Of a stretch of 25,410 nt of DNA, positions 1-10,283 are shown piece after piece; position 1 is the stretch's first letter; every line of letters begins with the position of its first letter. Origin of the DNA: a virus; the UHGV virus genome UHGV-0121369, one strand, 5' to 3'. The notes below the pieces were generated by a model, which was not told the origin of the DNA, did not search any database, and worked only from the letters and a program-made list of their open reading frames with translations. The position numbers were made by a program, and so were the translations under genes.

Positions 1-3
1 CTT

Positions 4-42
4 TGTGTACACTTTTGTGTACCCAAAAACAAAAATGTGTAC
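4..42. repeat. Three direct copies of TGTGTAC (about 4-10, 16-22, 36-42) just upstream of and overlapping the integrase start
   Basis: Read directly: tttGTGTACactttTGTGTACCCaaaaacaaaaaTGTGTACCCa. Possible integrase arm-type sites or att-proximal repeats; function inferred only. Confidence 0.3.
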
Positions 43-49
43 CCATTCA

Positions 50-1243
50 ATGATCACCGACACAAAGCTCAGGAAGGCGCTCGGCAAGAAAAGAGATGAT
101 ATCGAGATTATTTCTGATTCGCACGGGCTCAACGCCAGAATCAGCCAGGCCGGAAAAATATCATTTTTCTATCGGTATCGCTGGGCCGGTAAAGCGGTAA
201 AACTCAATGTTGGTGATTATCCTGCAATGAGTATCACCCAGGCAAGAGAGCGTCGCCAACAATTCAGAAACTGGTTAACTGAGGGACTGGATCCGCGAGA
301 GCAGGTGAAGCTGGATAAGCAGACCCGACAGGAAGCGATGTCCGTTGCCGAAGCGTTCAATTACTGGATTGAAAGGCACTGTATCGCTAACGGGCTAGTT
401 AAAGTCGATTACTATCGCCAGGTGTTTGAGAAACATATCGCCGAACCGATGAAGAATGTCAAAGTCGATAACACAGCGAAAATGCACTGGATCAACGTCT
501 TCGATTCTATAGAAAGCAGGGTGATGGCTCATTACATGCTTTCGCTGTGCAAACGGGCGTTTAGGTTCTGCGTTAACAGAAGTGTGATCGCCTCAAACCC
601 ACTCGAGGGATTACTGCCATCTGATGTCGGGCAAAAGCCTAAAAAGAGAACTCGCAGGATGGACGATGACGATCTGCGCAAAATCTATCAGTGGTTGAAA
701 AGCCATATGTCGATAGAGTCCGTTTTCCTGGTGAAATTTATTATGCTTACCGGATGCCGTACGGCTGAGATTCGACTTAGTGAGAGATCATGGTTTCGAT
801 TGGATGATAATGAGTGGGTCGTGCCTGCGGGCAGTTATAAAACTCGGGTACATATTAGAAGGGGACTCTCAGACGCCGCCGTTAACCTGGTCAGAAATCA
901 CCTCAAGAAAATAAACACCAATCACCTGGTGACTTCACAACGTAAAATTGATGGCGGGATCAAAGATTCGCCCGTTCATTCACCTGTGGCATCCAATTAC
1001 GCCCGTTCTATTTGGAATGGAACAGGTATGGCAGAGTGGTCGCTTCATGATATGAGGCGGACGATAGCCACAAATCTCTCTGAGTTAGGTTGCCCGCCGC
1101 ACGTAATTGAAAAGCTGCTCGGGCATCAGATGGTGGGGGTTATGGCGCATTACAACCTTCATGACTATATCGATGATCAGAAACACTGGCTCCGCGTTTG
1201 GCAGAGCCATCTTGAAGAGATCATCGGAGAGCCCTTCAGTTAA
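50..1243 (+). CDS. int: P4-type tyrosine integrase
   Basis: N-terminal arm-binding-like region ([10 protein letters not shown]..., [31 protein letters not shown]) and C-terminal catalytic region ([29 protein letters not shown]). The ORF frame is open from 5 (GTG); ATG at 35 or 50 is the more likely start; no clear SD. Confidence 0.85.
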
Positions 1244-1482
1244 TTTATCTTCTTTTTATCCTCCCACTCTTTGATTGACTCAGAGCGCCAGCGGTTAGGG
1301 TTGCCGGGCCAGTCAGGGGGTGGGAACGGGCATACGAAGCCCCGAGGCATTGTGTCTGCACTTTGCCATGACCAAAGGGTTTTGCGTGAAATTTTGTAGC
1401 GACTGGTCAGGTCTGACGTTACCAAAATATCATCCATAGCTCTCTCCAGTTGCCCGTTCGGGCCATTCAAAATCTTTTTCAA
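1240..1482 (-). CDS. xis: Excisionase-like small DNA-binding protein (Xis/AlpA-type)
   Basis: 80 aa; [21 protein letters not shown] resembles the excisionase/AlpA helix-turn-helix, with a Trp-rich tail; 3' end overlaps the int stop; start overlaps the next gene stop (coupled). Confidence 0.55.
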
Positions 1483-9124: not shown

Positions 9125-9346
9125 ATGGAGACCTTAACGACACGCAACAAAGCGGAGGCACGACGAATTGAGAGCTGGGTGCAGCGGCAAATCGCAGATC
9201 TTGGGACAACCAGGATCGCCGAAGTAGCTGGCGTGAACAAATCAACCGTAAGCCGGTGGCGGGAGAACCTGGTGCCGAACATGTCGCTGCTGCTCGCCAT
9301 CCTGATTTCTAGCAGGGATGGAGTGAAGGGAGATTTTGAAGCATGA
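9125..9346 (+). CDS. cII: CII-like transcriptional activator
   Basis: 73 aa; RIESWVQRQIADLGTTRIAEVAGVNKSTVSRWRENLVPNMSLLLAIL parallels lambda CII (RIESALLNKIAMLGTEKTAEAVGVDKSQISRW...FSMLLAVL). Confidence 0.75.
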   Translation: METLTTRNKAEARRIESWVQRQIADLGTTRIAEVAGVNKSTVSRWRENLVPNMSLLLAILISSRDGVKGDFEA

Positions 9347-9428: not shown

Positions 9429-10283
9429 ATGGCAAACACTGCCGAAGTAATCAATTTCCCTGTGCCTGACGTGGCACCTAAGGAGCCGCGCGTGGCAGAT
9501 CTTGATGATGGCTATACGCGCATCGCCAATGAACTTCTGGAGGCTGTCATGCTGGCTGGATTGTCTCAGCATCAGCTGCTGGTCTTCATGGCAGTAATGC
9601 GCAAAACATACGGTTTCAACAAAAAGGCGGACTGGGTAAGCAATGATCAGTTATCTGCCCTGACCGGAATCCTCCCACACAAATGCTCTGCGGCTAAAAG
9701 TGCGTTAGTCAGGCGCGGGGTGTTTACCCAAATCGGGCGAACTGTGGGCATTAACAAATCGGTCAGCGAATGGGTGAAATTACCCAAATCAGGTAACGAA
9801 AACAAAGTTTACCTGAAAGAGGTAAATTTACCCGAATCAGGTAAGAAATGTTTACCCGAATCAGGTAACGACACTTACCCAAATCAGGTAAACACAAAAG
9901 ACAAACATACAAAAGACAATAAAGACAATATTAATAAACCCCCTAAATCCCCCAAACCGGCTTCGTTCGATCCGGCTGCTGTTGACCTTCCTGAATGGCT
10001 GTCAGTCTCAGTCTGGAAGTCATGGGTCGATTATCGTCGTGACCTGAAAAAACCGATCAAGTCTCAGCAAACGGTTACCCAGGCCATCAACCTGCTCGAG
10101 CGTTGCAAGTGCAGCGGATATCAGCCTGAAGAAATCATCAACCAGAGCATTGCGAACGGCTGGCAGGGATTGTTTGAACCGAAAGGCATCAAGCAGCCAG
10201 CCCGCAATCAGACTCGCGTATCCGAGAACTTCGCTGGCAAGGACTACGGCCAGACTGAAATCCCATCATGGGCGAGGGACTGA
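9429..10283 (+). CDS. Replication initiator (lambda O-like) with origin inside the gene
   Basis: 284 aa; SD AGGAG 6 nt before ATG; basic N-terminal domain, central linker encoded by the iteron array, C-terminal domain; followed with a 2-nt gap by the helicase-loader gene. Confidence 0.8.
   Translation: MANTAEVINFPVPDVAPKEPRVADLDDGYTRIANELLEAVMLAGLSQHQLLVFMAVMRKTYGFNKKADWVSNDQLSALTGILPHKCSAAKSALVRRGVFTQIGRTVGINKSVSEWVKLPKSGNENKVYLKEVNLPESGKKCLPESGNDTYPNQVNTKDKHTKDNKDNINKPPKSPKPASFDPAAVDLPEWLSVSVWKSWVDYRRDLKKPIKSQQTVTQAINLLERCKCSGYQPEEIINQSIANGWQGLFEPKGIKQPARNQTRVSENFAGKDYGQTEIPSWARD
9780..9950. repeat. Origin of replication: five 17-bp palindromic iterons (TTACCC[A/G]AATCAGGTAA and one variant) followed by an AT-rich tract
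   Basis: Iterons at about 9780-9796, 9809-9825, 9828-9844, 9852-9868, 9875-9891, then an A/T-rich stretch (acaaaagacaaacatacaaaagacaataaagacaatattaataaa); same architecture as lambda ori inside O. Confidence 0.75.

Follow-up and report, generated by a model that had tools for sequence, protein, structure and literature searches.

The att sites closest to the one examined here are those of phage lambda (arm-type sites P1, P2 and P'1–P'3), of the KplE1 (CPS-53) IntS/TorI and P4 Int/Vis modules, and of phage phi80 itself (X04051, JX871397). In lambda, a heterobivalent tyrosine integrase works with a short repeat that is unrelated to the core and occurs on either side of it, the P' arm having three copies close together; the P arm contains IHF consensus sites, a 15–17-bp core is held in common with attB, and our locus resembles it in all of these traits (for the integrase class and the arm sites, as a prediction). 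The two differ in layout and protein family, such that the lambda P' sites abut or overlap the int 3' end whereas here they lie at the int 5' end with int transcribed away from the core, and the lambda arm-binding domain belongs to another Pfam family whereas here it is PF13356, paired with a GTGTAC-based motif and with sites predicted from sequence. Lambda also has two P-arm copies against the single one found here, a difference that counts against reading our repeats as arm-type sites, and its P' sites lie nearer to the core than the ~140 nt seen here.

The KplE1 and P4 modules share with our locus the order of parts, with a core, P' arm sites and an outward-reading int, and with int and the excision gene uncoupled. 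In both modules int reads outward from attL, and in KplE1 the -10 box is overlapped by the P'1 site (PMC2951348), much as box 1 here overlaps an annotated possible -10. These elements insert next to tRNA genes whereas the target here is the yciI 3' end, the KplE1 P' sites share a TAAA motif rather than GTGTAC, and promoter and repression are known there whereas for phi80 they are predicted. IntS and P4 Int are P4-type integrases as here, the Arm-DNA-bind_3 domain having been checked for phi80 Int alone. The deposited phi80 attP is the same DNA as ours, and the features marked in its records are int and xis, the core, a single IHF site and a possible int promoter, pI (in JX871397 the core, the IHF site and the 'possible' promoter fall just left of the DNA analyzed here), with no arm-type sites annotated in either X04051 or JX871397; the repeats described below may already have been reported in the first publications on this att site (Leong et al. 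1985/1986, Rotman et al. 2012).

We analyzed a 25,410-nt stretch of viral DNA (UHGV virus genome UHGV-0121369), hereafter the window, which in prophage order has int at its left end and terminase and portal at its right end. Window positions 1–1300 are 100% identical to phi80 (JX871397 24774–26073) and mEp237, 99.7–99.9% identical to HK225 and mEpX1, and present at 99% identity or more in 173 complete E. coli genomes, among them DH5alpha and DH10B with their phi80 prophage. Across the whole window, alignments to JX871397 and to the lab-strain phi80 prophage cover 44% and 61%, respectively (both at ~95% identity), and identity with phi80 itself was rejected on that match of just 44–61%; none of the complete E. 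coli genomes in the collection covers 80% of the window. The replication/immunity region is likewise unlike phi80, encoding a 73-aa lambda-type CII against the longer annotated phi80 CII (543-bp gene). Judged by its sequence, the window is a mosaic lambdoid prophage carrying a phi80 int-xis-att module, whose features at the left end are as follows.

4–10, + strand: box 1 (proposed arm-type site P'1), exact TGTGTAC, inside the palindrome GTGTACAC
16–22, + strand: box 2 (proposed P'2), exact TGTGTAC, 12 nt start-to-start from box 1
36–42, + strand: box 3 (proposed P'3), exact TGTGTAC, 20 nt start-to-start from box 2
50–1243, + strand: int, tyrosine integrase of 397 aa, 100% identical to phi80 int
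1240–1437, - strand: xis (excisionase), annotated in JX871397 at 26013–26210

The TGTGTAC boxes, the int start and the att core

The window opens with CTTTGTGTACACTTTTGTGTACCCAAAAACAAAAATGTGTACCCATTCAATGATC, and the three TGTGTAC copies that the original prediction had placed within the first 42 bp are confirmed as exact matches at 4–10, 16–22 and 36–42. Downstream, copies 2 and 3 extend as TGTGTACCCA and copy 1 as TGTGTACAC, the latter making GTGTACAC an 8-bp palindrome. Counting both strands of the whole window, TGTGTAC occurs 6 times against 1.46 expected from shuffles, the remaining three copies being dispersed (6073, 8346 and 8961). A look-elsewhere test on simulated 25-kb windows, in which every non-trivial 7-mer was scored for three copies inside 42 nt at any position, returned such a triple in 2.8% of first-order and 5.4% of third-order Markov simulations; from sequence statistics alone the cluster is thus only modestly significant, and the strong support is comparative. 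The sole other 7-mer triple of the window, AAAGACAA three times within 32 nt (9897–9928), sits in the ORF at 9429–10283 (Phage_rep_O, PF04492) and resembles the origin iterons that lambda carries inside its own O gene.

Overlap of the repeats with candidate int start codons had also been proposed, and it holds for ATG35, whose T and G are the first two bases of copy 3, but not for ATG50, which lies 8 nt past copy 3 and so leaves that copy at a ribosome-binding-site position rather than on the start codon. The two annotations disagree, with PGAP calling ATG50 and JX871397 calling ATG35. We favor ATG50 as the likely start codon, based on the PGAP call, the homologue lengths (393–397 aa for most), a Pfam domain that begins at residue 2, and the loss of ATG35 in relatives. 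Specifically, ATG35 is missing in the Franconibacter, Yokenella, Serratia, Pectobacterium and Pantoea relatives as well as in the Enterobacter and the second E. coli prophages, and in all of these the ATG50 position is a start codon (GTG in one).

The protein read from ATG50 carries a separate N-terminal arm-binding domain, with residues 2–87 matching Arm-DNA-bind_3 (PF13356, E=1.4e-18, 67 bits against a cutoff of 27) and residues 203–371 matching Phage_integrase (PF00589, E=7.8e-17). At the far end of the gene, int (+) and xis (-) are convergent and overlap by 4 nt at their stop codons (window 1240–1243), and JX871397 annotates a leftward terminator inside the int end (window 1188–1208); the longest ORF at xis (1240–1482) gave no Pfam match.

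Comparing phage attP, lysogen attL, lysogen attR and the empty attB of MG1655 defined a 17-bp att core, AGAACACTTTCTTAAAT (positions 1347–1363 of L001, our phi80 attP locus), whose end 138 bp left of window position 1 places the TGTGTAC repeats in the int-proximal (P') arm, and the same P' arm stands upstream of int in every sequenced context examined. An att core just outside the window, as the original prediction anticipated, is therefore found both in phi80 attP and in the lysogen attL, and the matching direct repeat at the other prophage end is present too, attR having the identical 17-bp core. The tRNA-type target that went with this prediction did not hold up: attB is the 3' end of yciI, a protein-coding gene, and in a lysogen (DH10B) the 3 kb upstream gave no tRNA with ARAGORN. 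A 2026 genome report likewise places the phi80 attB 'within 3' end of yciI' (PMC13449921). In MG1655 the core spans the last yciI codons and part of the stop codon (L254 4070–4088), and upon phi80 insertion the phage arm gives yciI a new stop at the same position (TGA to TAA).

Among relatives, the neighboring genes are cls/yciY, yciA/yciB and other protein-coding genes (L255, L256 and L262 among the loci), and the targets that can be defined are again protein-coding 3' ends, namely yciI for phi80 and yciB for the E. coli 20A24 prophage (L263 918–925 and 48091–48098). Several relatives insert within one small chromosomal neighborhood (cls-yciY-kch-yciI-tonB-yciA-yciB). Dozens of IMG/VR prophage contigs with this int (L015–L059) start exactly at ATG50; with the P' arm and core removed by the prophage-calling pipeline, such contigs cannot be used to analyze att.

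Copies in both arms and conservation among relatives

A fourth exact TGTGTAC lies in the phi80 P arm (L001 1260–1266), with the strand unchanged and 80 nt separating it from the core to its right, such that a repeat distinct from the core occurs in both attP arms (three P' copies, one P copy); the bacterial arms, that of attL included, have no TGTGTAC copy. Two perfect IHF consensus matches stand between the P-arm box and the core (L001 1281–1293 and 1311–1323), while the ~140 nt between core and box 1 contain no IHF consensus match at one mismatch or fewer, which we count against the boxes being arm-type sites. P arms were recovered for three lineages only, these being phi80, Kp4864-1 and E. 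coli 20A24. In the record of Klebsiella phage Kp4864-1, which is split at att, TGTGTACTT is retained ~80 nt from the junction at the right end. In the 20A24 prophage (Int 52% identical, 8-bp core TCTTCCTG), three attL boxes start 142 nt from the core and one attR GTGTAC lies 88 nt from it, for which the phi80 counterparts are 141 nt (P' boxes) and 80 nt (P box). Pattern searches of IMG/VR added no lineages to these: the 17-mer core pattern, meant for Citrobacter/Kluyvera attR, gave among the matches listed only attL copies and chance AT-rich matches, the P-arm pattern gave only phi80-type arms and chance coding matches, and a pattern of core, gap and box found nothing.

The surroundings of the P-arm box also recur. 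In phi80 it occupies the loop (17 nt) of a hairpin with a 9-bp stem (AAGGGCACA / TGTGCCCTT) followed by a T-rich stretch (L001 1246–1280), and in the 20A24 attR the P-arm GTGTAC is likewise held in a hairpin loop (stems AAAAGCACGCTT / AAGCGTGCTTTT, L263 ~47975–48020), giving in both lineages a single P-arm box in a 17–18-nt loop of a strong hairpin and then T or A runs. This hairpin could be a terminator that keeps read-through transcription out of attP, or it could be part of the structure of the arm site. On the other side of the core, the P' arm has further conserved blocks 20–100 nt left of the window (L001 1403–1414 and 1452–1478), namely CTGTTACGC, GTGTTACAT (invariant in 24 relatives) and an inverted repeat, TAACACT-N9-AGTGTTA, and distant relatives show several TTACCTT-like copies in the same P'-arm region; we consider these extra blocks candidate sites for Xis or another accessory protein.

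Conservation of the boxes was evaluated in a closer and a more distant set of relatives. The closer set comprised 24 distinct P' arms from Kluyvera/Citrobacter genomes and IMG/VR prophages (Int 79–87% identical) and from Kp4864-1 (72% DNA identity). From the core to the start codon of these arms, 20 of the 21 motif columns are invariant as against 66 of the 165 other columns (Fisher P=7e-7, uncorrected for phylogeny or shared ancestry). Boxes 1 and 3 are invariant throughout, and box 2 reads TG(T/C)GTAC, which is the sole variable motif column, such that TTTGTGTACACTTTTG(T/C)GTAC and ATGTGTAC are kept in all 24 arms with spacers that vary.

The distant set (Int 51–76% identical) lies beside cls/yciY or beside an EAL-domain, TetR, DUF6622, yciA or TonB-dependent receptor gene, and it retains the 12-nt spacing between boxes 1 and 2 in every member. 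Box 1 is kept as TTGTGTACA(C/T) in 9 of 9 loci compared (Int 51–100% identical), box 2 is weakened in three of the distant relatives (TGTGCCC, AGAGTAC and TGAGTAC), and most have a third GTGTAC close to the start codon. The Franconibacter and Yokenella relatives carry box 3 in inverted orientation (GTACACA), with ATG35 lost and the motif kept, which argues for conservation as a DNA site and not as coding sequence. The Serratia and Pectobacterium relatives have a missing or weak box 3, and this we count against the arm-site interpretation. Both the sites and their geometry are thus conserved in relatives that share the arm-binding domain.

Int itself diverges unevenly across these relatives. 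Residues 1–85 are its best-conserved part (65–94% identity), compared with 45–76% for residues 86–190 (the presumed core-binding region) and 46–84% for the catalytic part. That the arm domain and the boxes stay constant together, and that the core-binding domain changes together with the core and attB, fits what would be predicted of a heterobivalent integrase. The motif is nonetheless constant across the clade, which amounts to conservation without co-variation with Int and also counts against arm-type sites. A scan with the box 1–box 2 pattern further turned up three tandem TTTGTGTACAC units with a 12-nt period at 840–990 of an unrelated contig (L246, IMGVR_UViG_3300027985_000423), in a non-coding stretch with further TGTACA-containing boxes and no integrase nearby; we set it aside as unrelated, probably an array of iterons or operators belonging to a different phage in which the motif recurs by coincidence.

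Arm-type sites weighed against other roles

Taken together, we interpret the three TGTGTAC boxes as predicted arm-type sites at which a phi80-type heterobivalent tyrosine integrase would bind the P' arm, a reading we consider probable. The original prediction that these repeats could be integrase-binding sites at the prophage end is thereby supported on comparative grounds, through their P'-arm location, the P-arm copy, their conservation and the arm-binding domain of Int. In such a scheme, the N-terminal arm-binding domain of Int (residues ~1–85) would bind the three P' boxes and the single P-arm box, the C-terminal domains would engage and cleave the 17-bp core (138 bp to the left of window position 1), and DNA bending, part of which could be supplied by the at least two IHF consensus sites in the P arm, would join arms and core into an intasome for integration (attP x attB) and, with Xis, for excision (attL x attR).

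A published construct bears on this scheme. Minaeva et al. excised a phi80 attL-Km-attR cassette in vivo with phi80 Int/Xis (PMC2532685), and mapping the primers revealed that its attL ends at window position 54, with all three boxes inside and nothing further, and that its attR fragment contains the P-arm box. The cassette shows that these att fragments are sufficient for excision, and it says nothing on the necessity of the boxes. Full-text literature searches, with the original phi80 att papers outside their reach, gave nothing relevant on phi80 arm-type sites or on the motif itself, and no footprinting, EMSA or mutagenesis of the boxes with phi80 Int came to light.

Conservation alone would equally fit a promoter or an operator for another protein. 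That the boxes are sites of such a protein (Xis, or a host or phage regulator) controlling int or directionality, and not anchoring Int, is in our view unlikely, although KplE1 offers a parallel in TorI, an excision factor whose repeated attL sites likewise fall in the interval from the core to the int promoter (PMC2951348). In favor of such a protein, the box has partial palindromic symmetry (GTGTACAC), which is common in operators of dimeric regulators, and the motif stays constant although Int diverges. Against it, the best-conserved part of Int is its arm-binding domain, as a constant Int-recognized motif predicts, and the separate conserved P'-arm boxes (GTTAC / TTACCTT) make a better Xis candidate. 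Copies moreover occur in both arms with conserved geometry, whereas excision-factor sites are normally clustered in one arm. We regard it as quite unlikely that the conservation reflects only int expression signals (promoter, 5' UTR, small RNA hairpin or translation start) with no role in recombination. The -10 of the deposited 'possible pI' does overlap box 1, box 3 does stand at the expected ribosome-binding-site position, and the RNA of window 1–70 does fold boxes 1 and 2 into a hairpin (z=-2.45), but the GTAC palindrome makes that hairpin arise automatically, a search of Rfam gave no meaningful match to it, and no sigma-70 consensus promoter was found. Nor would expression signals predict a copy beyond the core, at the other prophage end, in three lineages, or a box 3 that survives inverted, an arrangement hard to reconcile with coding or promoter constraints and easy to reconcile with a protein-binding site.

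A functionless origin, as a chance cluster or a remnant of replication slippage, could draw on the look-elsewhere rate of 3–5% per 25-kb window, at which the cluster alone is not overwhelming. Yet only one of the 21 motif columns varies among the 24 diverged sequences, compared with 60% of the neighboring columns, and the boxes persist down to 51% Int identity, such that conservation, as judged from these alignments, effectively refutes chance and leaves it highly improbable.

Expression of int and the wider integrase clade

The original prediction had also suggested that int expression may be autoregulated. The parts are ordered as core, ~140 nt, three boxes and ATG50 (+ strand), and with int transcribed away from the core, the region upstream of int is the P' arm itself. 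Int bound to the predicted arm-type sites would cover the int transcription and translation start region, probably lowering its own expression, and in KplE1 and P4 the integrases (IntS and P4 Int) repress their own promoters through arm-type sites in attL (PMC2951348). By this analogy, phi80 Int may repress its own expression via the boxes, which we judge to be close to an even call and stop short of favoring. The 'possible pI' of JX871397 has a 21-nt spacer and a -10 hexamer (TACACT, window 8–13) that overlaps box 1, and scans of attP for sigma-70 consensus promoters and for terminators found none, which leaves the autoregulatory step without a mapped promoter to act on.

More tentatively, the GTGTAC boxes could be a dual-purpose element, serving both as intasome arm sites and as the int operator, across an enterobacterial clade of P4-type integrases in which the intasome geometry is fixed. 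Were this true, the clade would insert in protein-coding 3' ends (with yciI and yciB among the targets and some members beside cls/yciY) using one fixed layout, with a single P box in a conserved hairpin loop ~80–88 nt from the core and three P' boxes at ~141 nt, the third of which could flip. The same boxes would be the operator by which Int shuts off its own synthesis, and new insertion specificities would evolve by changing the core-binding domain and the core only. The comparative picture is an example of modular evolution of integrase specificity, with arm domain and boxes held constant as core-binding domain and target change.

As an element, the boxes are an ordinary feature, predicted to be one more example of a familiar type within a classical phage module, and no current idea is challenged by them. 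Their practical interest lies in the routine use of phi80 Int/att to insert single copies into the chromosome (CRIM plasmids, the Dual-In/Out strategy) and in the presence of phi80 prophages in common laboratory strains; knowing the arm boxes would lead to smaller and better defined att cassettes, and would account for a possible difference in int expression between free phage and prophage.

A CII-type activator site for int was also considered, at TTGCGTGTAG, 24 nt left of the window, which resembles the lambda pI box TTGCGTGTAA; it was not adopted since the second TTGC half is absent and the first half is not conserved in relatives. At the same place, TTGCGTGTAGCTTT (L001 1477–1490) resembles the lambda pI CII-binding box TTGCGTGTAATTGC (checked in NC_001416). 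A CII-activated int promoter is thus a weak lead suggested by sequence resemblance, and the window phage does encode a lambda-type CII (PF05269) at window 9125–9346.
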